Assembly: GCF_001677475.2 (NCBI RefSeq)
Contig: NZ_CP015229.1
DNA length: 64,000 bases
Direction: 5' to 3' (one strand)
From: Escherichia coli
GTDB taxonomy: Bacteria; Pseudomonadota; Gammaproteobacteria; Enterobacterales; Enterobacteriaceae
Of this stretch, positions 1 through 48,907 are shown one piece after another. The number at the start of each line of letters is the position of its first letter. Position 1 is the first letter of the stretch. The position numbers were made by a program, and so were the translations under genes. The notes under the pieces are model-generated. The model made no database searches. It worked only from the letters and a program-made list of their open reading frames with translations, and was not told the origin of the DNA.

Positions 1-152
1 ATATACGGGTCTAATACATTGAAGTTGAAGTTGTACATGGTGCGGTTGAACCCTTCTAACGGGTCAGAACGCCCTTGCTGATCTGTACCGGAACTCGCAC
101 ACCCCACCAGAAGCGTAGTTCCCAGAGCAAGCGCCGACAGGCGAAGCTTCAT
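1..152 (-). CDS. mlaA: MlaA (VacJ) outer-membrane lipoprotein, N-terminal part only (gene continues beyond window start)
   Basis: Reverse-strand translation from ATG at 152 gives MKLRLSALALGTTLLVGCASSGTDQQ..., a lipoprotein signal with lipobox LVGC matching MlaA/VacJ; runs off the window edge. Confidence 0.8.
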   Translation of the reverse strand, partial: MKLRLSALALGTTLLVGCASSGTDQQGRSDPLEGFNRTMYNFNFNVLDPY

Positions 153-1378: not shown

Positions 1379-1453
1379 ATGGCGAGGGTTTAAGCAATCG
1401 AGCGGCAGCGTACTTACCCCGCAGTCCATTAGCGGGTATACTCATGCCGCATT

Positions 1454-1528
1454 GTCCTCTTAGTTAAATGGATATAACGAGCCCCTCCTAAGGGCTAATT
1501 GCAGGTTCGATTCCTGCAGGGGACACCA
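1454..1528 (+). tRNA. argW: tRNA-Arg (anticodon CCU)
   Basis: 75-nt sequence GTCCTCTTAGTTAAATGGATATAACGAGCCCCTCCTAAGGGCTAATTGCAGGTTCGATTCCTGCAGGGGACACCA with cloverleaf potential, CCT in anticodon loop and encoded CCA end. Confidence 0.9.
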
Positions 1529-1653
1529 GATACCCTTCTAACGATATCTACCTTCACCCCGTAAAAGATGGGTTTGGCAGCACACTTACCCTATATCTAC
1601 TCATTTTTACTGCAACAGGTTGAAATCTTAGCACTGTCAGAAAGCGCTGATGA

Positions 1654-1890
1654 CTAAACAACCCTGGGCCGGGCGATGTAACCATCACACAGAATCCTGA
1701 TAGCGAAATATGGCGTGACTCGATACTTCACTCCGCAATGTATTCCTTGATGAATTCGCAGGCCCGTGATACACGGGACAGGTCGCTGAATGACGACAAT
1801 GTCCTGGAAATCAGCGAACCGCGTATCCGAAGTACATTTGAGCGACTGTACCAGAACATGAATGAGGCGTTTGGATTAGGTGATTATTAG
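1654..1890 (+). other. Unassigned open frame (stop-to-stop about 78 codons, internal Met at 1738) in the segment between argW and cscB; possible gene remnant
   Basis: Frame open from TGA at 1651-1653 to TAG at 1888-1890; translation ...MYSLMNSQARDTRDRSLNDDNVLEISEPRIRSTFERLYQNMNEAFGLGDY; no family recognised. Confidence 0.2.
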
Positions 1891-1969
1891 CAGGGCTAAG
1901 CATTTTAGTATTATTATTTTCCGGTTGAGGGATATGGAGATATCGACAACAACCGGAAAAAGTTTACGT

Positions 1970-3217
1970 CTATATTGCTGAAGGAACAGGCGTTTCCATA
2001 ACTATTTGCTCGCGTTTTTTACTCAGGAAGAAAATGCCAAATAGCAACATCAGGCAGACAATACCCGAAATTGCGAAGAAAACTGTCTGGTAGCCTGCGT
2101 GGTCAAAGAGTATCCCAGTCGGCGTTGAAAGCAGCACAATCCCAAGCGAACTGGCAATTTGAAAACCAATCAGAAAGATCGTCGACGACAGGCGCCTATC
2201 AAAGTTTGCCACGCTGTATTTGAAGACGGATATGACACAAAGTGGAACCTCAATGGCATGTAACAGCTTCACTAATGAAATAATCCAGGGGTTAACGAAC
2301 AGCGCGCAGGAAAGGATACGCAACGCCATAATCACAACACCGATAAGTAATGCATTTTTTGGCCCTACCCGATTCACAAAGAAAGGAATAATCGCCATGC
2401 ACAGCGCTTCGAGTACCACCTGGAATGAGTTGAGATAACCATACAGGCGCGTTCCTACATCGTGTGATTCGAATAAACCTGCATAAAAGACAGGAAAAAG
2501 TTGTTGATCAAAAATGTTATAGAAAGACCACGTCCCCACAATAAATATGACGAAAACCCAGAAGTTTCGATCCTTGAAAACTGCGATAAAATCCTCTTTT
2601 TTTACCCCTCCCGCATCCGCCGCTACGCACTGGTGATCCTTATCTTTAAAACACATGTTGATCATCATAAATACAGCGCCAAATAGCGAGACCAACCAGA
2701 AGTTGATATGGGGACTGATACTAAAAAATATGCCGGCAAAGAACGCGCCAATAGCATAGCCAAAAGATCCCCAGGCGCGCGCTGTTCCATATTCGAAATG
2801 AAAATTTCGCGCCATTTTTTCGGTGAAGCTGTCAAGCAAACCGCATCCCGCCAGATACCCCAGGCCAAAAAAGAGCGCCCCCAGAATTAGACCTACAGAA
2901 AAATTGCTTTGCAGTAACGGTTCATAAACGTAAATCATAAACGGTCCGGTCAAGACCAGGATGAAACTCATACACCAGATGAGCGGTTTCTTCAGACCGA
3001 GTTTATCCTGAACGATGCCGTAGAACATCATAAATAGAATGCTGGTAAACTGGTTGACCGAATAAAGTGTACCTAATTCCGTCCCTGTCAACCCTAGATG
3101 TCCTTTCAGCCAAATAGCGTATAACGACCACCACAGCGACCAGGAAATAAAAAAGAGAAATGAGTAACTGGATGCAAAACGATAGTACGCATTTCTGAAT
3201 GGAATATTCAGTGCCAT
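1970..3217 (-). CDS. cscB: Sucrose:H+ symporter (MFS, LacY-like oligosaccharide:H+ symporter family)
   Basis: 415-aa 12-TM-type ORF recognised as CscB; adjacent to cscK/cscA/cscR. Confidence 0.9.
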   Translation of the reverse strand: MALNIPFRNAYYRFASSYSFLFFISWSLWWSLYAIWLKGHLGLTGTELGTLYSVNQFTSILFMMFYGIVQDKLGLKKPLIWCMSFILVLTGPFMIYVYEPLLQSNFSVGLILGALFFGLGYLAGCGLLDSFTEKMARNFHFEYGTARAWGSFGYAIGAFFAGIFFSISPHINFWLVSLFGAVFMMINMCFKDKDHQCVAADAGGVKKEDFIAVFKDRNFWVFVIFIVGTWSFYNIFDQQLFPVFYAGLFESHDVGTRLYGYLNSFQVVLEALCMAIIPFFVNRVGPKNALLIGVVIMALRILSCALFVNPWIISLVKLLHAIEVPLCVISVFKYSVANFDRRLSSTIFLIGFQIASSLGIVLLSTPTGILFDHAGYQTVFFAISGIVCLMLLFGIFFLSKKREQIVMETPVPSAI

Positions 3218-3288
3218 AATTACCTGCCTGTCGTTAAAAAATTCACGTCCTATTTAGAGATAAGAGCGACTTCGCTGTTTACTTCTCA

Positions 3289-4203
3289 CTATTCCAGTTC
3301 TTGTCGACATGGCAGCGCTGTCATTGCCCCTTTCGCCGTTACTGCAAGCGCTCCGCAACGTTGAGCGAGATCGATAATTCGTCGCATTTCTCTCTCATCT
3401 GTAGATAATCCCGTAGAGGACAGACCTGTGAGTAACCCGGCAACGAACGCATCTCCCGCCCCCGTGCTATCGACACAATTCACAGACATTCCAGCAAAAT
3501 GGTGAACTTGTCCTCGATAACAGACCACCACCCCTTCTGCACCTTTAGTCACCAACAGCATGGCGATCTCATACTCTTTTGCCAGGGCGCATATATCCCG
3601 ATCGTTCTGTGTTTTTCCACTGATAAGTCGCCATTCTTCTTCCGAGAGCTTGACGACATCCGCCAGTTGCAGCGCCTGCCGCAAACACAAGCGGAGCAAA
3701 TGCTCGTCTTGCCATAGATCTTCACGAATATTGGGATCGAAGCTGACAAAACCTCCGGCATGCCGGATCGCCGTCATCGCTGTAAATGCGCTGGTACGCG
3801 AAGGCTCAGCAGACAACGCAATTGAACAGAGATGTAACCATTCGCCATGTCGCCAGCAGGGCAAGTCTGTCGTCTCTAAAAAAAGATCGGCACTGGGGCG
3901 GACCATAAACGTAAATGAACGTTCCCCTTGATCGTTCAGATCGACAAGCACCGTGGATGTCCGGTGCCATTCATCTTGCTTCAGATACGTGATATCGACT
4001 CCCTCAGTTAGCAGCGTTCTTTGCATTAACGCACCAAAAGGATCATCCCCCACCCGACCTATAAACCCACTTATTCCGCCTAATCTGGCGATTCCCACCG
4101 CAACGTTAGCTGGCGCACCGCCAGGACAAGGCAGTAGCCGCCCGTCTGATTCTGGCAAGAGATCTACGACCGCGTCCCCTAAAACCCACACTTTGGCTGA
4201 CAT
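3289..4203 (-). CDS. cscK: Fructokinase (PfkB/ribokinase family)
   Basis: 304-aa ORF with PfkB-type N-terminal GDAVVD and C-terminal GAGDAF motifs; in csc cluster. Confidence 0.85.
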   Translation of the reverse strand: MSAKVWVLGDAVVDLLPESDGRLLPCPGGAPANVAVGIARLGGISGFIGRVGDDPFGALMQRTLLTEGVDITYLKQDEWHRTSTVLVDLNDQGERSFTFMVRPSADLFLETTDLPCWRHGEWLHLCSIALSAEPSRTSAFTAMTAIRHAGGFVSFDPNIREDLWQDEHLLRLCLRQALQLADVVKLSEEEWRLISGKTQNDRDICALAKEYEIAMLLVTKGAEGVVVCYRGQVHHFAGMSVNCVDSTGAGDAFVAGLLTGLSSTGLSTDEREMRRIIDLAQRCGALAVTAKGAMTALPCRQELE

Positions 4204-4308
4204 TTTTTTCCCTTAGATTCATCTGACTTACGCATAGTGATAAACCTCTTTTTCGCAAAATCGTCATGGATTTACTAAAACATGCATATTCGATCACAAA
4301 ACATCATA

Positions 4309-4320
4309 GTTAACGTTAAC
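4309..4320. promoter_or_regulatory. Perfect 12-bp palindrome GTTAACGTTAAC in cscK-cscA divergent promoter region; candidate CscR operator (copy 1)
   Basis: Read directly in sequence; self-complementary; second identical copy 64 bp downstream. Confidence 0.5.
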
Positions 4321-4372
4321 ATTTGTGATATTCATCGCATTTATGAAAGTAAGGGACTTTATTTTTATAAAA

Positions 4373-4384
4373 GTTAACGTTAAC
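4373..4384. promoter_or_regulatory. Perfect 12-bp palindrome GTTAACGTTAAC; candidate CscR operator (copy 2)
   Basis: Identical to 4309-4320; lies about 25 bp upstream of cscA start codon. Confidence 0.5.
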
Positions 4385-4409
4385 AATTCACCAAATTTGC
4401 TTAACCAGG

Positions 4410-5852
4410 ATGATAAAAATGACGCAATCTCGATTACATGCGGCGCAAAACGCACTAGCAAAACTTCACGAGCGCCGAGGTAACACTTTCTATCCCCATT
4501 TTCACCTCGCGCCTCCTGCCGGGTGGATGAACGATCCAAACGGCCTGATCTGGTTTAACGATCGTTATCACGCGTTTTATCAACATCACCCGATGAGCGA
4601 ACACTGGGGGCCAATGCACTGGGGACATGCCACCAGCGACGATATGATCCACTGGCAGCATGAGCCTATTGCGCTAGCGCCAGGAGACGAGAATGACAAA
4701 GACGGGTGTTTTTCAGGTAGTGCTGTCGATGACAATGGTGTCCTCTCACTTATCTACACCGGACACGTCTGGCTCGATGGTGCAGGTAATGACGATGCAA
4801 TTCGCGAAGTACAATGTCTGGCTACCAGTCGGGATGGTATTCATTTCGAGAAACAGGGTGTGATCCTCACTCCACCAGAAGGAATCATGCACTTCCGCGA
4901 TCCTAAAGTGTGGCGTGAAGCCGACACATGGTGGATGGTAGTCGGGGCGAAAGACCCAGGCAACACGGGGCAGATCCTCCTTTATCGCGGCAGTTCATTA
5001 CGTGAATGGACTTTCGATCGCGTACTGGCCCACGCTGATGCGGGTGAAAGCTATATGTGGGAATGTCCGGACTTTTTCAGCCTTGGCGATCAGCATTATC
5101 TGATGTTTTCCCCGCAGGGAATGAATGCCGAGGGATACAGTTATCGAAATCGCTTTCAAAGTGGCGTAATACCCGGAATCTGGTCGCCAGGACGACTTTT
5201 TGCACAATCCGGGCATTTTACTGAACTTGATAACGGGCATGACTTTTATGCACCACAAAGCTTTTTAGCGAAGGATGGTCGGCGTATTGTTATCGGCTGG
5301 ATGGATATGTGGGAATCGCCAATGCCCTCAAAACGTGAAGGCTGGGCAGGCTGCATGACGCTGGCGCGCGAGCTATCAGAGAGCAATGGCAAACTCCTAC
5401 AACGCCCGGTACACGAAGCTGAGTCGTTACGCCAGCAGCATCAATCTATCTCTCCCCGCACAATCAGCAATAAATATGTTTTGCAGGAAAACGCGCAAGC
5501 AGTTGAGATTCAGTTGCAGTGGGCGCTGAAGAACAGTGATGCCGAACATTACGGCTTACAGCTCGGTACTGGAATGCGGCTGTATATTGATAACCAATCT
5601 GAGCGACTTGTTTTGTGGCGGTATTACCCACACGAGAATTTAGACGGCTACCGTAGTATTCCCCTCCCGCAGCGTGACACACTCGCCCTAAGGATATTTA
5701 TCGATACATCATCCGTGGAAGTATTTATTAACGACGGGGAAGCGGTGATGAGTAGTCGAATCTATCCGCAGCCAGAAGAACGGGAACTGTCGCTTTATGC
5801 CTCCCACGGAGTGGCTGTGGTGCAACATGGAGCACTCTGGCTACTGGGTTAA
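4410..5852 (+). CDS. cscA: Sucrose-6-phosphate hydrolase / invertase (glycoside hydrolase family 32)
   Basis: 480-aa ORF with GH32 N-terminal WMNDPNG catalytic motif and RDP motif (FRDPKV). Confidence 0.9.
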   Translation: MIKMTQSRLHAAQNALAKLHERRGNTFYPHFHLAPPAGWMNDPNGLIWFNDRYHAFYQHHPMSEHWGPMHWGHATSDDMIHWQHEPIALAPGDENDKDGCFSGSAVDDNGVLSLIYTGHVWLDGAGNDDAIREVQCLATSRDGIHFEKQGVILTPPEGIMHFRDPKVWREADTWWMVVGAKDPGNTGQILLYRGSSLREWTFDRVLAHADAGESYMWECPDFFSLGDQHYLMFSPQGMNAEGYSYRNRFQSGVIPGIWSPGRLFAQSGHFTELDNGHDFYAPQSFLAKDGRRIVIGWMDMWESPMPSKREGWAGCMTLARELSESNGKLLQRPVHEAESLRQQHQSISPRTISNKYVLQENAQAVEIQLQWALKNSDAEHYGLQLGTGMRLYIDNQSERLVLWRYYPHENLDGYRSIPLPQRDTLALRIFIDTSSVEVFINDGEAVMSSRIYPQPEERELSLYASHGVAVVQHGALWLLG

Positions 5853-5859
5853 CATAATA

Positions 5860-6861
5860 TCAGGTGGAACAACGGATCAACAGCGGGCAAGGGATCCGCG
5901 TCACTCTTCCCCCTTCACGACCTTCAATAATATGCAATGCAGCTTCCCGCCCGATAATGTCATGTGGAAGCTGAATTGTGGTCAGCGGCGGTAAAAACAG
6001 ATGCCCGACGCCAACCAGATTATCAAAGCCCATTACGGCGACATCCTGCGGGATACGTACCCCCTTCGCCAGGAGAACCTGATAAGCGACAAAGGCTGCG
6101 CGATCGTTACCACATATCAGAACATCAAAATCTGGTTTGCCAGATTGGAAGTGGGCATTGAGTAAACTTGCGAGATCGGTGTAGTGATCATCACCTGTTG
6201 CCATGTGAAATTGTTTCACCTCAGCCAGATCTCGTCCAGCATCACGCCAGGCCTGCTCAAATCCCTGCCGACGATACCCTGTTGCCAACGCACTTTCCGG
6301 TAGCCAGAAGCATAACGGTTGACGATAGCCCGCCGCGAGCAAATGCTGTGTTGATTCATATTGTGCAGTGTAATCATCAGGGATATAACTGGGTAACACT
6401 GGGTCATCCGCCACACAGTTCGCCAATACAATATTTTCACCATACAGAGACTCAGGCAGCGTGATATGTCGCAGCCCCATTGTAGTATAGATAATGCCAT
6501 CCGGACGGTGGGCAAGCAGCTGACGTGCCGCGCGGGCAGCGTCATCTTCAGAAAAAATATTGATTAAAAAACTATTCCAGCCGAACTCGCTGGCGGTTTG
6601 CTCAATGGCAAGCAGAATATCAACAGAGAAAGGAGTGGTAGCAGTGTCCTGCGCCAGCACGGCGAGAGTCGACGGCTTACGTCCTTGAGCGCGCATCTTA
6701 CGGGCGGAAAGATCAGGAACATAATTCAGGGTCTGGATTGCCTGCAATACGCGGTCACGCGTTGCAGGACGCACAGATTCTGCATTATGCATCACCCGGG
6801 AGACTGTCATCATCGACACTCCCGCCAGGCGTGCGACATCCTTTAATGAAGCCATACCCAT
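5860..6861 (-). CDS. cscR: LacI-family transcriptional repressor of csc genes
   Basis: HTH (MASLKDVARLAGVSMMTVSRVMHN) then periplasmic-binding-protein-like sugar domain; 397-aa ORF in track is probably 5'-extended, start placed at internal Met (6861 or 6855). Confidence 0.85.
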   Translation of the reverse strand: MGMASLKDVARLAGVSMMTVSRVMHNAESVRPATRDRVLQAIQTLNYVPDLSARKMRAQGRKPSTLAVLAQDTATTPFSVDILLAIEQTASEFGWNSFLINIFSEDDAARAARQLLAHRPDGIIYTTMGLRHITLPESLYGENIVLANCVADDPVLPSYIPDDYTAQYESTQHLLAAGYRQPLCFWLPESALATGYRRQGFEQAWRDAGRDLAEVKQFHMATGDDHYTDLASLLNAHFQSGKPDFDVLICGNDRAAFVAYQVLLAKGVRIPQDVAVMGFDNLVGVGHLFLPPLTTIQLPHDIIGREAALHIIEGREGGRVTRIPCPLLIRCST

Positions 6862-7097
6862 GCCGTTTGCCGTAAAACGGGCACTGTAGCAGAAACAGAC
6901 GTCACTGGCGAGATCCAACGATATTCTTAACGCCCTATCACCCGACACGGCAATACAATAAAAAATAACAATAATTGCCGGATAATTGTACCCAATTCCG
7001 CCCCTGTTCTCGCCAACGAGTAACCATATAGGCAAGTAAGTAAAACATGCCAACTGACATCGCCAACCTGGATAAGAAAATATAAATATGGATCATT

Positions 7098-7316
7098 GTG
7101 CTGCCGCTGTATCCCGACATCAGCCCGGAAATTATTGCGATTGCTATCGGTTCAGGTGCGATTGGCTGCACGATCGTTACGGACTCGCTTTTCTGGCTGG
7201 TGAAGCAATATTGCGGCGCTACGCTTAATGAAACATTTAAACACTATACGACAGCGACATTTATCGCTTCAGTCGTCGCTCTGGCGGGCACATTCCTGCT
7301 GTCATTTATCATCTAA
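7098..7316 (+). pseudogene. dsdX: 3' remnant of D-serine permease gene dsdX (GntP family); 5' portion and dsdC absent
   Basis: 72-aa ORF ...[42 protein letters not shown] resembles a GntP-family C-terminus; sits directly upstream of dsdA where dsdX is expected. Confidence 0.65.
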
Positions 7317-7333
7317 GCGCAAAGAGACGTACT

Positions 7334-8662
7334 ATGGAAAACGCTAAAATGAACTCGCTCATCGCCCAGTATCCGTTGGTAAAGGATCTGGTTGCTCTTA
7401 AAGAAACCACCTGGTTTAATCCTGGCACGACCTCATTGGCTGAAGGTTTACCTTATGTTGGCCTGACCGAACAGGATGTTCAGGACGCCCATGCGCGCTT
7501 ATCCCGTTTTGCACCCTATCTGGCAAAAGCATTTCCTGAAACTGCTGCTACTGGGGGGATTATTGAATCAGAACTGGTTGCCATTCCGGCTATGCAAAAA
7601 CGGCTGGAAAAGGAATATCAACAACCGATCAGCGGGCAACTGTTACTGAAAAAAGATAGCCATTTGCCCATTTCCGGCTCCATAAAAGCACGCGGCGGGA
7701 TTTATGAAGTCCTGGCACACGCAGAAAAACTGGCTCTGGAAGCGGGGTTGCTGACGCTTGAAGATGACTACAGCAAACTGCTTTCTCCGGAGTTTAAACA
7801 GTTCTTTAGCCAATACAGCATTGCTGTGGGCTCAACCGGAAATCTGGGATTGTCAATCGGCATAATGAGCGCCCGCATTGGCTTTAAGGTGACAGTGCAT
7901 ATGTCTGCTGATGCCCGGGCATGGAAAAAAGCGAAACTGCGCAGCCATGGCGTTATGGTCGTGGAATATGAGCAAGATTATGGTGTTGCCGTCGAGGAAG
8001 GACGTAAAGCAGCGCAGTCTGACCCGAACTGTTTCTTTATTGATGACGAGAATTCCCGCAGGTTGTTCCTTGGGTATTCCGTCGCAGGCCAGCGTCTTAA
8101 AGCGCAATTTGCCGAGCAAGGTCGTATTGTCGATGCTGATAACCCTCTGTTTGTCTATCTGCCGTGTGGTGTAGGCGGTGGTCCTGGTGGTGTCGCATTC
8201 GGGCTTAAACTGGCGTTTGGCGATCATGTTCACTGCTTTTTTGCCGAACCAACGCACTCCCCTTGTATGCTGTTAGGCGTCCATACAGGATTACACGATC
8301 AGATTAATGTTCAGGATATTGGTATCGACAACCTTACCGCAGCGGATGGCCTTGCAGTTGGTCGCGCATCAGGCTTTGTCGGGCGGGCAATGGAGCGTCT
8401 GCTGGATGGCTTCTATACCCTTAGCGATCAAACCATGTATGACATGCTTGGCTGGCTGACGCAGGAAGAAGGTATTCGTCTTGAACCTTCGGCACTGGCG
8501 GGTATGGCCGGGCCTCAGCGCGTGTGCGCATCAGTAAGTTACCAACAGATGCACGGTTTCAGCGCAGAACAACTGCGTAATGCCACTCATCTGGTGTGGG
8601 CGACGGGAGGTGGAATGGTGCCGGAAGAAGAGATGGAGCAATATCTGGCAAAAGGCCGCTAA
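7334..8662 (+). CDS. dsdA: D-serine ammonia-lyase (D-serine dehydratase), PLP-dependent
   Basis: 442-aa ORF; PLP-lysine region SGSIKARGG; recognised as DsdA. Confidence 0.9.
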
Positions 8663-42427: not shown

Positions 42428-44617
42428 TTAATCAGCTAATGGCTGCGGGCGACCAATCAGATACCCTTGCAGATATTGCACCCCGAGCTTATGCAATAGC
42501 GCCTGTTGCTGTTGCGTCTCGACAAACTCCGCGACCACACTCAATGACTTCGCTTTCGCCAGATCGGTAATTGATCTCACAATCATCGCATCCAGCGTGT
42601 TCGTGACAATATCTTTCACAAAGACGCCATCAATTTTGATGATATCAGCCTGCAAACGCTTTAACCGTTCGTAGTTGGCATATCCGGTGCCAAAGTCATC
42701 AATCGCAATCCGGAAACCAAACTTATGCAGCTGCTCGATGTTGTACATGCTGCTTTCTGCGTTAGAAAACGCCTGCTCCTCGGTGATCTCAAGAATGACC
42801 GCCTGCGGGGAGATGTGATAACGCTTAAACAGACGAATAATCCGCCCGGCAATATTCTTTTGCAGCAGCGTGAGCGGCATTAAATTGACTGAAAAGCGCG
42901 GTCCTTTTTTGTCGCAAGGGTGTGTTGCCAGCCACTTCAACAAGGATTCCAGCACTTGCAAATCAAAACGCGCGCTAAGGTTAAACTGAGCAATAAGGGG
43001 CAGAAACTTATCCGGGGTCATAATGCCGCCGTCATACTTCAGTCGCGCGAGGATCTCATCATAACCTTCACCCTCTTTGTTGCGAATTGGCTGGGCGTAG
43101 AGCAGCAAATCACCCTGATCTAACGCCGTGCGAATGGTATTCAGCAATAGCACCTGTTTAGTGGTCTGCCCGGAAACCATCTCCTCTCTGCTATCCAGCG
43201 CCAGCACATGATGATGTGCACAGGATTGCTCCGCCAGCCAGCTTAACTGCCCCAACAAGGGTTGCAGGGTTTCCTGATTTCCATCAAAACGCCCCCAGGC
43301 AGCACCATAGCCCATATCCAGCCCGGTATTGTTCCAGTGAATTTGCCGACTATTCAGGATGTTAACCATATGCTGGAGTCGTCCTTCCGTTTCCGGTCCG
43401 CTCAGCACTAACAGCAGTTCACTACCCGGCAATTGATACAACTTTTCGTTTTCCTGCATCAACGGCAGCAGCGTACGGTAAATTGAGCGGATACAGTGAA
43501 CGCGCATCATTAACCCGTAATGACGACTCATAAACTCAAGATTATCAATGCGCAGGCAGCAAAAACTCTTGCCCGCCTCTTGCTCCGGCGCTTGTTCTAA
43601 CGCACGAAAGTTGGGTAGGAGCGTTAACGGATCGGTCAGCGCCTGCAAATGCCAGCGGCGATTAAGCCATTCACTGCGATGATAAATGCGCACCATATAG
43701 AGCAGGCAAACGCTAAAGGAAATCAGCACCGCAAGAATAAATGCCAGCGAATATTCGGTTTCCACCCCTTGCAAAAAGTTCTGGTTGTAATTCAGCAGGC
43801 AAAGCGTTGAAACAGCCCAGGTGAGATTTAAAAACGGATAGCGAAGCTTACCGACCCCGAGGGTAAAGATGATGAAGAAAACGGGTACCAGGTAACCGGC
43901 AATAAAGTCGTTTTCATAAGGTGTGCACAACAGAAGTAGCAGCACGCTTAACGCTGCCAGCCAGCTTAAGGTAAATGCGCGTTTCTCTTTGCCCAACGAC
44001 GGAGCGATATCCCTGCGCCACAATATCTGCGCAAAGTGGGGACTTACAATCATGCGAGTGAGATAGTAGAAAAGCATGTTGTAAATCAGCACAGCGGTGA
44101 AAAGGCTTAGCAAATCAACGACCGTGAAAATGGCATCCGCATCGCCGAAAAAGGTGGATATCTTTAGCGGGAAATCAAAGAAGCTCCCCACAAGATACAT
44201 GCTGCATTTGATGCCGATCGGCGTCACCAAACCAAGCCAGAACAGACGTTGCCAGACATATCGGCTGGTCAATCCATAACGCCAACGCGTCCCCAGCTGC
44301 CAGCGTAATATTGCGCAGGCACACAACACGACAAACGTCTGGCTGCCGAGCATGACCGCAGTCTGTAAAAAAGAGAGATGAAAGTTCCACAGATTGGTGC
44401 AAAACATCCCGCATAAAACGGGAACGACACCGCGCCAGCCAAAGATAAACAAGATTGATAGCATTACGCACAGTGGCATCCACGCCAGAAAGATATAACT
44501 GGAATGGATAATGGCAAGTGGCGAAATAAAACGGGATAGCTGAATAAGTACCACGGTGAGCGTAAACGCTAGTGTGAATATCTTGATATTTTTTATCAGG
44601 TTATGCTCCACAAACAT
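42428..44617 (-). CDS. pdeA: c-di-GMP phosphodiesterase (MASE1 membrane sensor, degenerate GGDEF, EAL)
   Basis: Start placed at MFVEHNLIKNIK (about 729 aa); C-terminal EAL domain motifs (EITE, DDFGTGY). Confidence 0.85.
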   Translation of the reverse strand: MFVEHNLIKNIKIFTLAFTLTVVLIQLSRFISPLAIIHSSYIFLAWMPLCVMLSILFIFGWRGVVPVLCGMFCTNLWNFHLSFLQTAVMLGSQTFVVLCACAILRWQLGTRWRYGLTSRYVWQRLFWLGLVTPIGIKCSMYLVGSFFDFPLKISTFFGDADAIFTVVDLLSLFTAVLIYNMLFYYLTRMIVSPHFAQILWRRDIAPSLGKEKRAFTLSWLAALSVLLLLLCTPYENDFIAGYLVPVFFIIFTLGVGKLRYPFLNLTWAVSTLCLLNYNQNFLQGVETEYSLAFILAVLISFSVCLLYMVRIYHRSEWLNRRWHLQALTDPLTLLPNFRALEQAPEQEAGKSFCCLRIDNLEFMSRHYGLMMRVHCIRSIYRTLLPLMQENEKLYQLPGSELLLVLSGPETEGRLQHMVNILNSRQIHWNNTGLDMGYGAAWGRFDGNQETLQPLLGQLSWLAEQSCAHHHVLALDSREEMVSGQTTKQVLLLNTIRTALDQGDLLLYAQPIRNKEGEGYDEILARLKYDGGIMTPDKFLPLIAQFNLSARFDLQVLESLLKWLATHPCDKKGPRFSVNLMPLTLLQKNIAGRIIRLFKRYHISPQAVILEITEEQAFSNAESSMYNIEQLHKFGFRIAIDDFGTGYANYERLKRLQADIIKIDGVFVKDIVTNTLDAMIVRSITDLAKAKSLSVVAEFVETQQQQALLHKLGVQYLQGYLIGRPQPLAD

Positions 44618-44824
44618 GAGTACACTACTCTCACTGATCGGGGTTTTCAGGCACACAAATAATAAGTTTATTCGCATCGCGAAGCAAACAGGGGCCAGCC
44701 TGTTGCCTATTTTTCATCCAATGATGCTTTCACCAGGCGGCGCTAACCCGGACGTAGACTGTATTACAAAAGCGGCAAAAAGCAGAGACAAAAAACCCCC
44801 GCTTTGCAGCGAGGGTTGGAAATT

Positions 44825-44900
<76 letters not shown>

Positions 44901-45119
44901 GTCACGTAAAGCTTGTCGAGTTGACGGGCGGCATCATATGAATTCCGCCCGAATGTGTCAACGGCAAATTGCAACGTGTAGTTTCAATCGCTGAAAAATC
45001 AGGCAAATGAACAATTTTGGAAAACCGCTCGCATTCAGTAGTTATTCATGTCACGGTTTCCTGTAAAGTGGTGTTATAAAATGAACTACTAATAGACCCC
45101 ATACATTCAGGGAATTGTT

Positions 45120-45479
45120 ATGTTCAAGGAGAGGATGACGCCAGATGAACTTGCCAGACTGACTGGCTATAGCCGCCAGACCATTAATAAATGGGTACGC
45201 AAGGAAGGCTGGACAACGTCACCAAAACCTGGCGTCCAGGGTGGCAAAGCCCGACTGGTTCACGTCAATGAACAGGTTCGTGAATATATTCGCAATGCTG
45301 AACGTCCGGAAAGTCAGGGAGAAACGCCTGCCCTTTCTGGTGATGCGCCGCTTGAAGTATTGCTGGTGACACTGGCGAAAGAGATGACGCCAGTCGAACA
45401 AAAACAGTTTACATCCTTACTTCTGCGGGAAGGGATTATCGGATTGTTACAACGCTTAGGGATTCGCGATAGCAAATAA
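45120..45479 (+). CDS. yfeC: Small putative HTH DNA-binding protein (YfeC/YfeD paralog pair, member 1)
   Basis: 119-aa ORF; N-terminal HTH-like LARLTGYSRQTINKWVRKEGW; paralogous to downstream yfeD. Confidence 0.8.
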   Translation: MFKERMTPDELARLTGYSRQTINKWVRKEGWTTSPKPGVQGGKARLVHVNEQVREYIRNAERPESQGETPALSGDAPLEVLLVTLAKEMTPVEQKQFTSLLLREGIIGLLQRLGIRDSK

Positions 45480-45480
45480 T

Positions 45481-45873
45481 ATGAAAAGATTACGCAATAA
45501 AATGACCACCGAAGAACTGGCTGAATGTCTCGGTGTGGCTAAACAAACTGTTAACCGTTGGATCAGAGAAAAAGGCTGGAAAACGGAAAAATTTCCCGGC
45601 GTGAAAGGCGGTCGTGCCAGACTTATTCTGGTCGATACGCAAGTTTGCGAGTTTATTCAGAACACGCCTGCGTTCCATAACACACCAATGTTGATGGAAG
45701 CTGAAGAGAGAATTGCTGAATACGCTCCTGGAGCACGCGCCCCGGCGTATCGACAAATCATCAACGCGATAGATAATATGACAGACATTGAGCAGGAAAA
45801 AGTCGCGCAATTTTTGTCACGTGAAGGAATTCGCAATTTCCTCGCCCGTCTCGATATTGACGAATCAGCATAA
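45481..45873 (+). CDS. yfeD: Small putative HTH DNA-binding protein (YfeC/YfeD paralog pair, member 2)
   Basis: 130-aa ORF; LAECLGVAKQTVNRWIREKGW...GGRARLILVDTQVCEFIQN parallels yfeC. Confidence 0.8.
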   Translation: MKRLRNKMTTEELAECLGVAKQTVNRWIREKGWKTEKFPGVKGGRARLILVDTQVCEFIQNTPAFHNTPMLMEAEERIAEYAPGARAPAYRQIINAIDNMTDIEQEKVAQFLSREGIRNFLARLDIDESA

Positions 45874-45875
45874 AT

Positions 45876-45915
45876 AAAAAACGGCAGGATATTATCTCCT
45901 GCCGTTTATCTTTTT
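45876..45915. terminator. Bidirectional terminator between yfeD and convergent gltX (AAACGGCAGG-ATATTATCT-CCTGCCGTTT)
   Basis: 10-bp perfect stem with flanking A/T runs. Confidence 0.6.
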
Positions 45916-45924
45916 ACACGCTAA

Positions 45925-47340
45925 TTACTGCTGATTTTCGCGTTCAGCAATAAAGGCCAGCGCTTTGTTGATACGCTCAATGCTACGTGTCTTACCGATC
46001 GCGTGAACGGTAACATCCAGTGCTGGAGACTGCCCCGCACCGGTTACGGCGACACGCAGCGGCATACCAACTTTACCCATACCCACTTCCAACTCATCCG
46101 CCGTCGCCTGAATAGCGTGATGAACGTTTTCAGCGGTCCAGTCAGTAATCGCGGCCAGTTTGTCACGAACCACTTCCAGCGGCTGACGCGCTACCGGACG
46201 CAGATGTTTTTTCGCGGCGTCGGCATCGAACTCTGCAAAATCTTCGTAGAAATAACGGCAGCTCTGTGCCATCTCTTTCAGCGTCTTGCAGCGTTCGCCC
46301 AGCAGTTTCACCAGATCAGCCAGCTGCGGGCCGTTACGGGTATCGATATTTTCCTGCTCAATGTGCCACTGTAAGTGAGTAGCAACATACTCCGGCGGCA
46401 GCGCGTTAATGTAGTGATGGTTCAGCCACAGCAACTTGTCGGTGTTGAACGCACTGGCAGATTTGCTGACGGCATTCAAAGTGAAGTATTTGATCATCTC
46501 TTCACGAGTGAAGATTTCCTGATCGCCGTGGGACCAGCCCAGACGCACCAGATAGTTCAGCAGTGCTTCTGGCAAATAACCGTCATCACGGTACTGCATT
46601 ACGCTGACCGCCCCGTGACGTTTGGACAGTTTTTTACCGTCATCGCCGTTGATCATAGAAACGTGCGCGTAAACCGGCACCGGCGCTTTCAGGGCTTTAA
46701 GAATGTTGATCTGGCGCGGCGTGTTGTTGATATGGTCTTCGCCACGGATAACATGGGTGATTTCCATATCCCAGTCATCAACAACCACACAGAAGTTATA
46801 GGTTGGGGAACCATCGGTACGGCGAATGATCAGATCATCCAGCTCCTGGTTGCTGAACTCAATCGGGCCACGGATCTGATCGTCAAAAACAACAGAACCT
46901 TCCTGCGGGTTAGCAAAACGTACAACGCACGGTTCATCATCAGCATGATGCTCATGGCTGTGGCGGCAGCGACCGTCATAACGCGGCTTCTCACCTTTCG
47001 CCATTTGTTCTTCGCGCAGCGCTTCCAGGCGCTCTTTAGAGCAATAGCATTTATAAGCAGTGCCCTCTTCCAGCATCTGATCGATCACCGCGTTGTAGCG
47101 ATCAAAACGTTTGGTCTGGAAGTACGGACCTTCATCCCACTCCAGGCTCAGCCAGTTCATGCCATCCATAATGGCTTCGATAGCTTCCGGCGTGGAACGC
47201 TCAAGATCGGTGTCTTCAATACGCAGCACGAACTCACCGCCGTGGTTACGTGCAAAAAGCCAGGAGTAAAGAGCAGTACGCGCGCCGCCAACGTGCAGAT
47301 AGCCTGTTGGGCTTGGCGCGAAGCGAGTTTTGATTTTCAT
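45925..47340 (-). CDS. gltX: Glutamyl-tRNA synthetase
   Basis: 471-aa class I aaRS with HVGG-type motif ([17 protein letters not shown]) and KMSKS-like KLSKR. Confidence 0.9.
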
Positions 47341-47553
47341 GAAATGGCCTTACGTTTAGAAAGATGCCGACAACCGGCAAATCCTGGAAAAATTGAGTGG
47401 GCGATATTCTATCACTCCCGCCTGATTCCTCAATGTAGTTCGGGTTTCTACCTTAAGCATTATTGTTTTCGTTGACAAATTGCGCAACACGGTCTGTTTT
47501 GCGATCATCTTGCTTAAATTTACGACGAACGAACAATTTCTTTAGAAAATGCG

Positions 47554-47581
47554 TTGACTCATTTTGAACTCTCCCTATAAT
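47554..47581 (+). promoter_or_regulatory. Sigma70-type promoter for the tRNA-Val/Lys operon (-35 TTGACT, 16-bp spacer, -10 TATAAT, GC-rich discriminator)
   Basis: Consensus hexamers read directly, about 18 bp upstream of the first tRNA-Val. Confidence 0.6.
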
Positions 47582-47598
47582 GCGACTCCACACAGCGG

Positions 47599-47674
47599 GG
47601 GTGATTAGCTCAGCTGGGAGAGCACCTCCCTTACAAGGAGGGGGTCGGCGGTTCGATCCCGTCATCACCCACCA
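47599..47674 (+). tRNA. valU: tRNA-Val (anticodon UAC), copy 1
   Basis: 76-nt GGGTGATTAGCTCAGCTGGGAGAGCACCTCCCTTACAAGGAGGGGGTCGGCGGTTCGATCCCGTCATCACCCACCA. Confidence 0.9.
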
Positions 47675-47718
47675 ACTACTTTATGTAGTCTCCGCCGTGT
47701 AGCAAGAAATTGAGAAGT

Positions 47719-47794
47719 GGGTGATTAGCTCAGCTGGGAGAGCACCTCCCTTACAAGGAGGGGGTCGGCGGTTCGATCCCGTCATCACCCACCA
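47719..47794 (+). tRNA. valX: tRNA-Val (anticodon UAC), copy 2
   Basis: Identical 76-nt sequence to copy 1, separated by a 44-bp spacer. Confidence 0.9.
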
Positions 47795-47798
47795 CTTC

Positions 47799-47874
47799 GG
47801 GTCGTTAGCTCAGTTGGTAGAGCAGTTGACTTTTAATCAATTGGTCGCAGGTTCGAATCCTGCACGACCCACCA
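47799..47874 (+). tRNA. lysV: tRNA-Lys (anticodon UUU)
   Basis: GGGTCGTTAGCTCAGTTGGTAGAGCAGTTGACTTTTAATCAATTGGTCGCAGGTTCGAATCCTGCACGACCCACCA. Confidence 0.9.
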
Positions 47875-47878
47875 ATGT

Positions 47879-47906
47879 AAAAAAGCGCCCTAAAGGCGCT
47901 TTTTTG
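47879..47906. terminator. Intrinsic terminator after tRNA operon (AAAAAAGCGCC-CTAA-AGGCGCTTTTTT), bidirectional with xapR
   Basis: Perfect stem with flanking A/T runs. Confidence 0.7.
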
Positions 47907-47982
47907 CTATCTGCGATTTGCGAAATTGCCTGATGCGCTTCACTTAGCAGACTACTATTTCCGGCAATTCCTGTCTCCTCAC

Positions 47983-48867
47983 CTACTGTGTCAATGCAGC
48001 CAACAGCTTAACCATCGCGGGCGTCACCTGCTGTGTTTCATAAACAATATATAAATCTGCAGGGATGCGCTGTTTGAGCGGACGGAAAATGACACCTGGC
48101 CAGTTCATTTGTGCGTAGCTGTCCGCTATCAATGTGATACCAATGCCCATACTGACCATGGCGAGTACCGTTTGCGGTTCATTAACTTCGCGAATAACAA
48201 CCGGTGAAAATCCCACCTGCTGGCAAACTCGCTGCAAAAAATCCCAGTCAGTGTACACGGGCGGCATTGTAACAAAATACTCGTCACGTAGCGCTTCCAG
48301 CGGGACGGTGGAAAATGATGAGAAATGATGCTCTTCAGGCATCGCCACCAGAAACGCCGATTCATGCAACCGTAAGCTGGTAAAACCTGCAGGTGGTTCT
48401 GTTGCCATTCGCCAGATACCGGCATCGAGTTCACGTCGTTCCAGCAGGGTCATTTGCATCGCGGGCATCTTTTCGCGAAAAAGAACGTCAACGTTAGGAT
48501 TTTCCCTGAGGAATCGCCGCATAACCGGGCGCATCCGTCCCCACATTGCCGTTCCCACTACGCCGAGTTCAATCCGCCCTGCTTCTCCCCGACCTATTTG
48601 TTCAACCCGAGCCAATACATTATTAGCATTCACCAGCAATCGACGCGATTCTTCCATCAAGATTTTGCCCGCGTGTGTCAGTACGACGCTGCGCGAATGG
48701 CGAATAAAAAGCTGCGTGCCGAGTTGATTTTCCAGCTCTTTAATATGAATACTGAGCGGAGGCTGAGACATATTTAAACGCGCTGCTGCGCGACCAAAAT
48801 GCAACTCTTCCGCTACGGCAAGAAAATAACGGAGCAACTTAAGATCTGTTCTGTATACGCGTTCCAT
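47983..48867 (-). CDS. xapR: LysR-family activator of xanthosine operon
   Basis: Start placed at MERVYRTDLKLLRYF (about 294 aa); N-terminal LysR HTH. Confidence 0.85.
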   Translation of the reverse strand: MERVYRTDLKLLRYFLAVAEELHFGRAAARLNMSQPPLSIHIKELENQLGTQLFIRHSRSVVLTHAGKILMEESRRLLVNANNVLARVEQIGRGEAGRIELGVVGTAMWGRMRPVMRRFLRENPNVDVLFREKMPAMQMTLLERRELDAGIWRMATEPPAGFTSLRLHESAFLVAMPEEHHFSSFSTVPLEALRDEYFVTMPPVYTDWDFLQRVCQQVGFSPVVIREVNEPQTVLAMVSMGIGITLIADSYAQMNWPGVIFRPLKQRIPADLYIVYETQQVTPAMVKLLAALTQ

Positions 48868-48907
48868 AATTAAGTGCTCCATATAATAAATACATCGTAT
48901 TAAATTA

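Follow-up and report, generated by a model that had tools for sequence, protein, structure and literature searches.

The yfeC-yfeD locus

The genes yfeC and yfeD lie side by side in the window (the whole 64,000-nucleotide stretch of Escherichia coli DNA analysed here), and their positions are listed with those of the neighbouring features in Table 1. The two reading frames are found where the preliminary description had placed them, coding for 119 and 130 residues respectively. They are separated by a single base pair (the TAA of yfeC ends at 45479 and the ATG of yfeD begins at 45481), an arrangement that makes translational coupling of the two genes likely. The products are 38% identical over 127 columns of a BLASTP alignment (E 1e-27), and both match PF07037 (YfeC-like; formerly DUF1323) from end to end (profile positions 1-122 of 122), YfeC with 174.1 bits (E 1.7e-51) and YfeD with 213.5 bits (E 1e-63), above the gathering score of 22.9 bits. 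The proposal of a tandem paralogous pair is thus well founded, and the peptide stretches that had been singled out as similar between the two proteins are correct.

The translational start of yfeC is annotated differently in different sources. The K-12 annotation begins translation at position 45135 of the window, the second ATG, giving a protein of 114 residues, and RefSeq PGAP gives the 119-residue form. Both ATGs are kept across genera, except that the upstream start is GTG in Cedecea. The internal methionine is replaced by L, V or I in the orthologues of Erwiniaceae and Chimaeribacter, whose starts lie further upstream, and this favours the start at 45120.

Table 1. Features of the yfeC-yfeD locus. 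Positions are those of the window.
Feature	Position	Strand	Description
Intrinsic terminator of the tRNA-Ala transcription unit	44794..44817	-	10-bp GC-rich stem followed by a T-run
tRNA-Ala(GGC), alaW/alaX type	44825..44900	-	ARAGORN; Rfam tRNA, 63 bits
tRNA-Ala promoter	44933..44961	-	TTGACA-17-TATGAT with GC-rich discriminator; consensus scan, 11/12 positions; points away from yfeC
yfeC upstream regulatory region	44962..45119	+	Phylogenetic footprint of 24 intergenic regions
yfeC	45120..45479 (alternative start 45135, 114 aa)	+	Upstream paralogue, more conserved copy; PF07037
yfeD	45481..45873	+	Downstream paralogue, faster-evolving copy; PF07037
Bidirectional intrinsic terminator common to yfeD and convergent gltX	45879..45907		11-bp stem, T-runs on both strands
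gltX (glutamate-tRNA ligase)	45925..47340	-	Conserved convergent neighbour; outside the operon

A gap of 219 bp separates yfeC from the tRNA-Ala gene, which is transcribed in the opposite direction, away from yfeC. The pair had been described as directly downstream of a tRNA gene, and this holds by position only; the tRNA gene is divergent, with its own promoter lying between it and yfeC. There is one tRNA-Ala copy here, whereas K-12 has two (alaX and alaW), as do 72 of the 80 related loci. When the 24 intergenic regions, each from a different genus, are compared, the tRNA-Ala promoter block is nearly invariant, and several further conserved elements are seen closer to yfeC: the block CAATCGCTGAAAAA at about 44986-44999, CTCGCA at 45028-45033, GTCAC..TTTC at 45050-45060, and an extended -10-like TGtTATAAA at 45072-45080. 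In most other genera the CTCGCA element forms the right half of an intact palindrome, TGCGAG-N4-CTCGCA, which is degenerate here. A simple promoter scan found no canonical sigma-70 promoter on the plus strand upstream of yfeC, so the assignment of the yfeC promoter is a putative one. We propose that yfeCD would be transcribed from a promoter within the 219-bp region, which it would share with the divergent tRNA-Ala promoter, and that transcription would end at the terminator shared with gltX. The only open reading frames within 42428-48882 are pdeA, yfeC, yfeD, gltX and yfeR, and an Rfam scan of 44000-48500 revealed no RNAs besides tRNAs.

Conservation and gene order

The yfeC-yfeD pair is present in 5425 of 5426 complete E. 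coli genomes. We also sampled 80 Enterobacteriaceae loci representing more than 20 genera, and yfeC and yfeD are adjacent in all 80; the divergent tRNA-Ala gene is positioned 215-237 bp upstream of yfeC in all 78 loci that could be assessed, and gltX is adjacent and convergent in 71 of those 78. The common gene order at the sampled loci is pdeA, tRNA-Ala, yfeC, yfeD, gltX and tRNA-Val-Lys. The pair is therefore conserved at this one locus across the Enterobacteriaceae, the outcome that the preliminary description had named as counting against a mobile origin.

The association with gltX extends further than that with the tRNA gene. A single yfeC-like gene occupies the corresponding slot next to gltX in Erwiniaceae (Winslowiella and Erwinia) and in Chimaeribacter, and in the Erwiniaceae a transporter gene lies between this orthologue and tRNA-Ala while gltX still abuts it. 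The family gene also adjoins gltX in Cedecea and in two metagenomic contexts. A family search returned 235 matches at E<=1e-3 among 1.84 billion representatives, and all eight of the distinct distant-member contexts that reach past the gene adjoin gltX; one further contig of 1 kb, which stops just after the gene, was left out of this count. All 51 of the members checked against the family profile match PF07037. The tRNA adjacency of yfeCD is ancestral gene order, and we conclude with considerable confidence that yfeC-yfeD is a two-gene operon, vertically inherited in E. coli and related bacteria as part of their stable core genome, and that it encodes two paralogous small transcription factors.

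Duplication and selection

The preliminary description had proposed that the pair arose by an ancient tandem duplication, and a neighbour-joining tree (without bootstrap support) bears this out. All of the upstream copies form one clade, with the single-copy genes of the Erwiniaceae as its sister, and all of the core downstream copies form a second; both clades mirror genus relationships. Together with the single yfeC-like gene found at the same site in Erwiniaceae and Chimaeribacter, which points to one old event within the Enterobacteriaceae, this suggests a history in which the ancestor of Enterobacteriaceae, Erwiniaceae and a subgroup of Yersiniaceae would have carried one gene next to gltX, which would have been tandemly duplicated once, early in the Enterobacteriaceae. 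YfeC would have retained the ancestral sequence type and YfeD would have diverged faster. The downstream copies of Cedecea and of one sampled locus (L082), as well as the Chimaeribacter gene, have long branches near the root of the tree, so there may have been more than one duplication in basal lineages.

Identities across genera are 65-85% for YfeC and 44-72% for YfeD. In 13 pairwise comparisons dN/dS ranges from 0 to 0.145 for yfeC and from 0 to 0.17 for yfeD, and both copies are under strong purifying selection.

Domain architecture and fold class

The N-terminal part of both YfeC and YfeD is predicted to fold as a winged helix-turn-helix like those of excisionases, MerR and Mu proteins; its signature is GW.T...GV(K/Q)GG(K/R)A. 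The middle is a poorly conserved, disordered linker, and the C-terminus is a conserved two-helix domain (L..LL.REGI.G.L.RLGI). An AF2 model of the YfeD monomer (pTM 0.46) has the winged helix-turn-helix at residues 7-61, a disordered segment at 74-85, and helices at 88-123. We infer that the C-terminal domain mediates oligomerisation. The earlier designation of these proteins as Cro-like does not fit a fold of this type.

Several known groups share the DNA-binding fold. The excisionases, or recombination directionality factors, including Pukovnik Xis (4j2n), TorI (1z4h), an AlpA-family protein (8c3t) and Tn916 Xis (1y6u), have the same type of winged helix, although these are single-domain proteins of about 55-80 residues encoded beside an integrase, whereas YfeC and YfeD are longer, carry the additional conserved C-terminal domain, and have neither an integrase partner nor a mobile context. 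Scores for the excisionase family TIGR01764 are 18.7 bits for YfeC and 27.7 bits for YfeD, below the cut-off of 28.8. BldC of Streptomyces and RacA of Bacillus are, like YfeC and YfeD, small, chromosomal and vertically inherited and are without a ligand-binding domain, but they belong to an unrelated sequence family in other phyla, and BldC lacks a C-terminal helical domain. YfeD is named a 'MerR family transcriptional regulator' in RefSeq. The MerR-family regulators do share the fold superfamily, but YfeC and YfeD lack their long antiparallel coiled coil and effector-binding domain, in place of which the model has a disordered linker and a short pair of helices. PF13411 (MerR_1) scores 12.6 bits with YfeC (E 0.15; cut-off 21.6), has no listed match with YfeD, and is found at E<=0.01 in only two of the 51 family members; the RefSeq name overstates the relationship.

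Relation to the phage Mu repressor

The YfeC-like family has a distant phage relationship, to the repressor c (Repc/MuR) of phage Mu. The phage protein family phrog_7148, of which Mu c is the prototype (E 6.9e-73), covers nearly the full length of basal family members with E values from 1.4e-10 to 4e-5, and hhalign aligns family residues 7-121 with residues 16-133 of Mu c (probability 92-94%, E 1.6e-7). Reciprocally, Mu c matches PF07037 at 23.1 bits, borderline against the cut-off of 22.9. The MuA I-alpha domain (1tns) is the top PDB sequence match. PF02316 (HTH_Tnp_Mu_1) is found at E<=0.01 in nine of the 51 members (best 2.8e-06) and is below its cut-off for the two proteins in the window (15.2 bits for YfeC versus 23.3).

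Mu c and MuA I-alpha share the winged helix-turn-helix topology predicted for YfeC and YfeD (beta-alpha-alpha-beta-wing-beta-alpha) and the signature GW.(T/K)...GVKGGKA, and the likeness to Mu c runs through the linker into the helical region, residues 100-133 of Mu c resembling ..MT..EQ..L..LL.REGI.G.L in YfeC and YfeD. The profile matches end at positions 118-124 of the 176 in phrog_7148 and at residue 133 of the 196 in Mu c. The YfeC-like family thus appears, by profile comparison, to be a distant homologue of Mu c over both domains, truncated after the central domain. In absolute terms the similarity is weak, with identity of only about 25%, and YfeC and YfeD (114-130 residues, against 196) are without the C-terminal third of Mu c, which comprises part of the multimerisation region and a ClpXP-sensitive regulatory tail. 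The gene order in Mu is c-ner-A-B, whereas yfeCD are chromosomal core genes flanked by tRNA-Ala and gltX, with no ner, A, B or Mu ends nearby.

The preliminary description had coupled such conservation with a lack of affinity to phage or ICE regulators as the outcome that would speak against its proposal; for phage regulators, the Mu c homology shows the opposite. The homology leaves room for an ultimate phage origin; if there was one, the source would be a transposable phage, and the tRNA adjacency would be irrelevant to it. The ancestral yfeC-like gene would then be a truncated c repressor that was captured from a Mu-like transposable phage before Enterobacteriaceae and Erwiniaceae split, and was recruited as a host regulator. 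The reciprocal profile homology over DNA-binding domain and central region is consistent with such a capture, as are a match of the N-terminus to the Mu-like transposase family phrog_310 (E 3e-9), the very narrow taxonomic range of the family for transcription factors, and the precedent of E. coli SfsB/Nlp, a host homologue of phage Mu Ner. However, the similarity is remote, other Mu-like genes and Mu ends are missing from the neighbourhood, the winged-helix superfamily is common among cellular regulators (BldC, RacA and MerR), and transfer in the opposite direction, from host to phage, is just as conceivable. We consider capture a possible origin, though a rather unlikely one. This scenario concerns origin only and is compatible with the core-operon explanation.

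Regulation by YfeC and YfeD

Both proteins have already been treated as transcription factors, with 50 YfeC and 36 YfeD sites identified by ChIP-exo (PMC8464067). Paralogy, family, synteny, selection, fold class and the Mu c homology were computed here; DNA binding in vivo and the regulon come from the literature. Deletion of yfeC alters expression of 205 genes, with yfeD increased by 4.3 log2 (PMC8464067). YfeC probably represses its own operon, although polarity of the deletion construct, and not relief of autorepression, could account for the 20-fold rise in yfeD. After an approximate coordinate conversion of +1977 bp, the published 'yfeC' peak (2516052-2516085 in NC_000913.2) falls not on the promoter but some 400 bp away from the start of yfeC, within the 3' end of alaX. 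ChIP signals at strongly transcribed tRNA genes can readily be artefacts. The reported YfeC motif consists of 'TTC-rich inverted repeats spaced by 6 nt' (MEME E 7.1e-10; PMC8464067). We sought this motif in the yfeC upstream region and in two of the ChIP-exo sites, located by the approximate conversion between NC_000913.2 and.3, and saw no convincing common motif.

We propose that YfeC and YfeD would bind a few dozen chromosomal sites as homo-oligomers, hetero-oligomers or both, tuning transcription up as well as down; YfeC:YfeD heteromers may form. A different possibility is that both are architectural or nucleoid-associated proteins akin to BldC or RacA, binding many sites with low specificity through cooperative head-to-tail multimerisation. 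BldC and RacA are among the nearest structural neighbours, YfeC and YfeD are similarly without a ligand-binding domain, and 40% of the YfeC ChIP-exo sites are intragenic, with functionally diverse targets and one site common to YfeC and YfeD (PMC8464067). Against this, the reported motif is significant, and the 36-50 sites fall short of the hundreds by which that study defines nucleoid-associated regulators (PMC8464067). We regard an architectural role as improbable.

A further proposition takes YfeC and YfeD to be Mu-type c repressors, truncated and domesticated, that would still be tied to Mu-type regulatory logic. They would either constitute a host-encoded remnant of a transposable-phage switch together with SfsB/Nlp, or act on infecting Mu-like phages, whose lysogeny or immunity they would influence by binding the phage operators. 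SfsB/Nlp, like YfeC and YfeD, is a small helix-turn-helix protein of the core genome with a Mu early regulator as its closest characterised relative, and differs in its Ner/Cro-like fold family. In ChIP-exo, YfeC and YfeD each have a peak in the 5' region of sfsB, assigned by the authors to ispB/sfsB, and a change in sfsB expression is not listed for the yfeC deletion (PMC8464067). A functional link to SfsB is speculative, and we think it quite improbable that the proteins retain a role of this kind.

Mobile-element and toxin-antitoxin interpretations

The pair had been suggested to be a fixed relic, comprising excisionase or regulator genes, of a prophage, ICE or genomic island inserted at tRNA-Ala. 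Its N-terminal fold is indeed excisionase-like (YfeD scores just under the TIGR01764 cut-off), the family is restricted to one lineage, and GC content is slightly lower in yfeCD (0.45-0.48) than in gltX (about 0.50-0.56), a mild dip inside the range of the window, pdeA having 0.47-0.53. Elements that target tRNA genes insert at the tRNA 3' end, whereas yfeCD lies beyond the 5' end of tRNA-Ala, on the side where this divergent gene has its promoter, and the tRNA-Val/Lys cluster likewise points away. The invariant placement across genera and the near-universal presence in E. coli also argue against insertion at the tRNA, as does the Erwiniaceae orthologue, which is parted from tRNA-Ala and yet remains at gltX, and purifying selection on both genes is not what decay would leave.

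Searches for the expected components of such an element gave the same picture. No integrase is found among the open reading frames of 42428-48882 or among the above-cut-off Pfam, PHROG and NCBIfam matches of YfeC and YfeD, a second copy of the 24-nt tRNA-Ala 3' segment is absent from the 64 kb with three mismatches allowed, and no direct repeats flank yfeCD. A tblastn search with YfeD against 50,697 phage genomes gave no match at E<=1e-3, and at E<=10 only chance-level helix-turn-helix fragments (best E 0.1). With its position 5' to the tRNA gene, fixed locus, purifying selection, and lack of integrase or att repeat, the pair is very unlikely to be a decayed tRNA-targeting element.

Copies in 13 plasmid records were considered as evidence of mobility and set aside, most of these being Mb-sized mislabelled chromosomes; the two smaller records inspected (K. 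pneumoniae, 229 kb, and Salmonella, 70 kb; H18 and H20) have the chromosomal nupC-pdeA-yfeCD-gltX context and are non-mobilizable. A PADLOC search for defence systems gave a weak mad1 helix-turn-helix match (E about 1e-5, over 30-40 residues), which we judged to be generic similarity.

It is hardly credible that the two genes form a type II toxin-antitoxin module in which one product is a toxin and the other a helix-turn-helix antitoxin. They are small, tightly coupled neighbours, RASTA-Bacteria (2007) ranked yfeD/yfeC as a high-confidence candidate (PMC2374986), and there are weak PF15943 (YdaS_toxin) matches under the cut-off. However, no toxin model reaches its cut-off, the partners are paralogues with one common two-domain architecture, unlike toxin-antitoxin pairs, and Erwiniaceae and Chimaeribacter have the gene without a partner. 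Inheritance of the pair is strictly vertical and at one locus, and yfeC deletion mutants grow normally despite the rise in yfeD.

Discussion

This is a cautionary case in which excisionase-like small helix-turn-helix genes beside a tRNA gene resembled the remnant of an island, whereas their orientation, their purifying selection and a synteny that spans three families show an ordinary core operon. None of the results overturns the current annotation of yfeCD. This is a known, ordinary core regulator operon, for which the homology to the Mu repressor alone is mildly new. Useful by-products are a dated and probably single tandem duplication with asymmetric divergence, YfeD being the faster copy, and a conserved upstream footprint that provides candidate operators. 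The YfeC-like family is narrow and poorly understood, and its apparent relation to the Mu repressor, which profile searches support reciprocally over both domains, suggests that the C-terminal domain may drive oligomerisation and offers a template for mutagenesis.

Paralogy and descent of yfeC and yfeD

The preliminary description placed two open reading frames 1 bp apart, and the coordinates of both were confirmed, with a single base between the yfeC TAA and the yfeD ATG. Pairwise alignment and HMM searching likewise bear out its claim of paralogy: YfeC and YfeD align over their full lengths (38% identity, E = 1e-27) and each matches PF07037 'YfeC-like' end-to-end (E = 1.7e-51 and 1e-63 respectively), and the relationship is therefore real and far past chance. 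Annotations differ in the start of yfeC, with the second ATG used in K-12 (114 aa) and the 119-aa start used by PGAP. Both ATGs are kept across genera, except in Cedecea, which has GTG at the upstream start; the internal Met is replaced by Leu, Val or Ile in the Erwiniaceae and Chimaeribacter orthologues, which begin about five residues upstream, and this favors 45120 as the start codon. We also observed a 17-nt direct repeat within yfeC (45134–45150 and 45383–45399, GATGACGCCAG..GAAC, 88% identity), with one copy coding for MTPDE where the N-domain begins and the other for MTPVE where the C-terminal helices begin; an M-T-x-x-E pattern is also present twice in YfeD. The repeat is probably a helix-capping motif and not an internal duplication.

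In a neighbor-joining tree of 54 proteins (without bootstrap values), all upstream copies group in a single clade, sister to the single-copy genes of the Erwiniaceae, and a second clade holds the downstream copies from core Enterobacteriaceae. Both clades repeat the groupings of E. coli with E. albertii, Salmonella with Citrobacter, Klebsiella with Raoultella, and Trabulsiella with Yokenella, which is the signature of one ancient tandem duplication whose copies then passed down vertically, and agrees with the duplication proposed earlier. Placement is unsettled near the root, where the downstream copies of Cedecea and of locus L082, and the Chimaeribacter protein, have long branches. Identity to the window proteins across genera is 44–72% for YfeD versus 65–85% for YfeC, and YfeD evolves faster than YfeC. 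The dN/dS values (NG86, 13 species pairs) are 0–0.145 for yfeC, 0–0.17 for yfeD and 0.006–0.033 for gltX; both genes are under strong purifying selection, with no decay.

Genomic context and the upstream region

A 1.4-kb yfeCD query is matched in 5425 of 5426 complete E. coli genomes, at a median of one place per genome, and nearly all of these places are chromosomal. A cross-species scan using one genome per species gave 106 confirmed loci; among the best 80, which were retained, yfeC and yfeD are adjacent in all 80, a minus-strand tRNA-Ala lies 215–237 bp upstream of yfeC in all 78 that could be assessed, and gltX is convergent and immediately 3' of yfeD in 71 of 78. The other seven are Kosakonia-group loci (L055, L065, L066, L067, L071, L076 and L079), which keep pdeA, tRNA-Ala, yfeC and yfeD, lack gltX in the 5 kb that follow yfeD, and have a rearrangement or insertion at the yfeD–gltX junction. 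Genera with the pair include Escherichia, Salmonella, Citrobacter, Enterobacter, Klebsiella, Raoultella, Kluyvera, Leclercia, Lelliottia, Trabulsiella, Yokenella, Pluralibacter, Phytobacter, Kosakonia and Superficieibacter, among others.

Distant members were found by exhaustive HMM search and traced to their contigs. Cedecea has the pair in the same gene context, and Winslowiella and Erwinia (Erwiniaceae) and Chimaeribacter (Yersiniaceae) have a single yfeC-like gene convergent with gltX, with an FNT-family transporter gene between it and two tRNA-Ala genes. The Enterobacteriaceae have no FNT gene in the gap between tRNA-Ala and yfeC, and instead have pdeA flanking the tRNAs on their opposite side. 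The family is very small, with 235 matches at E ≤ 1e-3 among 1.84 billion representatives, and all named members are from the Enterobacterales. The longest open reading frame of pdeA (yfeA, 42428–44677) is 749 aa, versus 2190 bp (729 aa) in the K-12 annotation; translation probably does not begin at the upstream in-frame start.

The pair had been described as lying directly downstream of a tRNA gene. Adjacency is correct, but tRNA-Ala is on the minus strand with its promoter on the yfeC side, and yfeCD is therefore upstream of it and divergent. Comparison of 24 genera shows the tRNA-Ala promoter and its GC-rich discriminator to be nearly invariant, with a conserved block, CAATCGCTGAAAAA, between this promoter and yfeC. 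A palindrome upstream of yfeC, TGCGAG-N4-CTCGCA, is whole in most genera, and Escherichia keeps only the right half (45028–45033). These blocks and those tabulated below are candidate operator and promoter elements.

The window has a single tRNA-Ala(GGC) and, at 47599–47874, two tRNA-Val(UAC) ahead of tRNA-Lys, compared with two tRNA-Ala and three tRNA-Val in K-12; two tRNA-Ala copies are present in 72 of 80 related loci (best 80 of 106). Tandem tRNA copies have been lost in the source strain, and only six E. coli genome records match this stretch at ≥99% identity. In Escherichia sp. E1V33 (L004 4344–4419) and Citrobacter sp. NCU1 (L011 4341–4416), whichever of the two tandem tRNA-Ala genes is nearer to yfeC has the anticodon TGC and not GGC, an apparent anticodon switch in one copy.

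Features of the yfeC–yfeD locus, related loci and the YfeD model
Feature	Coordinates	Strand	Remarks
tRNA-Ala terminator	44817–44794	-	
tRNA-Ala(GGC)	44825–44900	-	219 bp from yfeC, transcribed away
tRNA-Ala promoter	44961–44933	-	TTGACA-17-TATGAT, near-consensus; between tRNA and yfeC
GTCAC..TTTC	45050–45060		conserved block upstream of yfeC, 24 genera
TGnTATAA(A/C)	45072–45080		extended -10-like, upstream of yfeC, 24 genera
yfeC	45120–45479	+	119 aa
yfeD	45481–45873	+	130 aa
Bidirectional terminator	45879–45907	both	serves yfeD and gltX
Formate/nitrite-transporter-family gene	L089 4082–4870; L091 4062–4847; L093 4053–4841		Erwiniaceae/Chimaeribacter loci
Common YfeC/YfeD ChIP-exo site	NC_000913.2 3332954–3332983; L098 about 3432–3461		E. 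coli K-12
YfeD N-terminal domain	residues 7–61		beta-alpha-alpha-beta-beta-alpha, AlphaFold2
YfeD linker	residues 74–85		low confidence, pLDDT below 50, AlphaFold2
YfeD C-terminal helices	residues 88–98 and 102–123		confident, pLDDT about 90, AlphaFold2

Fold and relation to the phage Mu repressor

An AlphaFold2 model of YfeD was built from a 51-sequence family alignment (mean pLDDT 78). Its structural neighbors include the pSK1 Par DNA-binding domain (5.7), BldC (5.5), RacA (5.3), small terminase subunits (5.2–5.3) and the Mu repressor DNA-binding domain (1qpm, 5.0), with the TorI, AlpA-type and Tn916 excisionases scoring lower (3.9–4.2). The N-terminal fold is thus predicted to be a winged helix of the excisionase/MerR/Mu type; of the Cro/excisionase-like helix-turn-helix suggested previously, the excisionase likeness is retained and the Cro likeness is not. 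PGAP names YfeD a 'MerR family transcriptional regulator', which overstates the relationship because the Pfam MerR_1 match to YfeC and YfeD is below significance. The family profile also drew in long proteins of 300–1300 aa (P0174, P0179, P0181 and similar) consisting of 4–13 tandem copies of a short HTH unit, with an HNH-like motif at the end of P0174 (821 aa); this is an unrelated repeat-HTH architecture.

A PDB sequence search with the family profile gave the MuA I-alpha domain as best match, with the common signature GW.T...GVKGG(K/R)A. For the basal single-copy members, the match to phrog_7148 ('transcriptional repressor') covers nearly their entire length (P0402 residues 4–110 against positions 7–118 of 176, E = 1.4e-10), and they also match the N-terminal part of phrog_310, a Mu-like transposase family (E = 3e-9). 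Among 51 family members, 48 match phrog_4151, 16 match phrog_7148 and 19 match phrog_3037, the last through the C-terminal domain. The prototype of phrog_7148 is the Mu repressor c, taken from the phage Mu genome (E = 6.9e-73), which has a further match to phrog_3037. Aligning the YfeC-like family with Mu c using hhalign gave 92–94% probability (E = 1.6e-7) over family residues 7–121 and Mu c residues 16–133, and in the reverse search Mu c residues 42–132 match PF07037 (23.1 bits, gathering score 22.9). YfeC and YfeD thus appear to be distant homologues of the Mu repressor across both the DNA-binding domain and the helical region that follows it; our literature search found no paper linking yfeC with the Mu repressor. 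In Mu c, multimerization is driven by the region after the DNA-binding domain, and we infer from this homologous region that oligomerization of YfeC and YfeD may be mediated by their conserved C-terminal helices. The extreme C-terminus of Mu c is a regulatory, ClpXP-sensitive tail, and the last ~60 residues of Mu c are absent from YfeC and YfeD.

A proposed mobile origin for the pair

The preliminary description suggested that yfeCD may be the fixed remnant of an integrative element beside the tRNA, with no integrase or repeats remaining. The latter is accurate, as we found no integrase with yfeCD and no repeat of the tRNA-Ala 3' end within the 64-kb window (3 mismatches allowed); tblastn of YfeD against 50,697 phage genomes yielded no copy at E ≤ 1e-3. 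The relic interpretation itself is contradicted by these absences, by the location of the pair on the wrong side of tRNA-Ala, by its universal, position-fixed presence across three families, by the Erwiniaceae, in which the yfeC-like gene keeps gltX and not the tRNA as its neighbor, and by purifying selection on both genes. The two 'plasmid' matches to yfeCD that were inspected are chromosomal fragments and were rejected as evidence of mobility. Universal conservation without phage affinity had been named beforehand as grounds for refutation; the conservation was found, yet homology to Mu c is present, and for this reason we regard the preliminary interpretation as a whole as supported in part. 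Any mobile ancestor would be older than the Enterobacteriaceae–Erwiniaceae split and would be a transposable-phage repressor, for which the tRNA neighbor is without significance.

Elsewhere, window positions 446–8662 open with yfdC (an FNT-family transporter) and tRNA-Arg(CCT) (argW, 1454–1528), followed by what we take by eye to be csc sucrose-utilization genes (permease, fructokinase, invertase and LacI-type repressor) and then dsdA; no integrase-sized open reading frame was seen by eye in this interval. As a tRNA-linked variable region, it is more plausible than yfeCD.

Functional data

ChIP-exo has validated both proteins, with 50 YfeC sites, 36 YfeD sites and a YfeC motif (MEME E = 7.1e-10), and deletion of yfeC gives 205 differentially expressed genes, with yfeD up 4.3 log2 units (padj 5e-133) (Gao et al. 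2021, PMC8464067). The rise in yfeD fits autorepression, and polarity of the deletion could account for it equally well. The peak assigned by the authors to yfeC (2516052–2516085, NC_000913.2; PMC8464067) is at the 3' end of alaX by our +1977-bp coordinate conversion, and we therefore do not count it as promoter binding. An E. coli K1 yfeC mutant colonizes the neonatal rat small intestine more poorly and is less lethal (PMC5847654), and LEE1 transcription is unaffected by yfeC deletion in EHEC (PMC11508082). The pair has also been listed by RASTA-Bacteria as a yfeD/yfeC toxin-antitoxin candidate (PMC2374986), and yfeD was noted by Wolf and Koonin as a paralogy problem in orthologue calling (PMC3542571).

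One site, with the same left edge, is common to the YfeC and YfeD lists and was assigned to ispB/sfsB (PMC8464067). Of the 32 other transcription factors, YciT alone has a peak nearby, and sfsB is absent from the list of genes differentially expressed in the yfeC deletion. sfsB (nlp) is the host homologue of Mu Ner, and we think it very improbable that the Mu c-like YfeC and YfeD are still tied to Mu-type regulation, either via sfsB/nlp or via incoming Mu-like phages. The yfeCD locus is already known and annotated, a core-genome operon encoding two small transcription factors that are paralogues. The only additions, of modest novelty, are the reciprocal homology with the Mu repressor, the timing of the duplication and the unequal divergence of its copies, and the conserved footprint upstream of yfeC.
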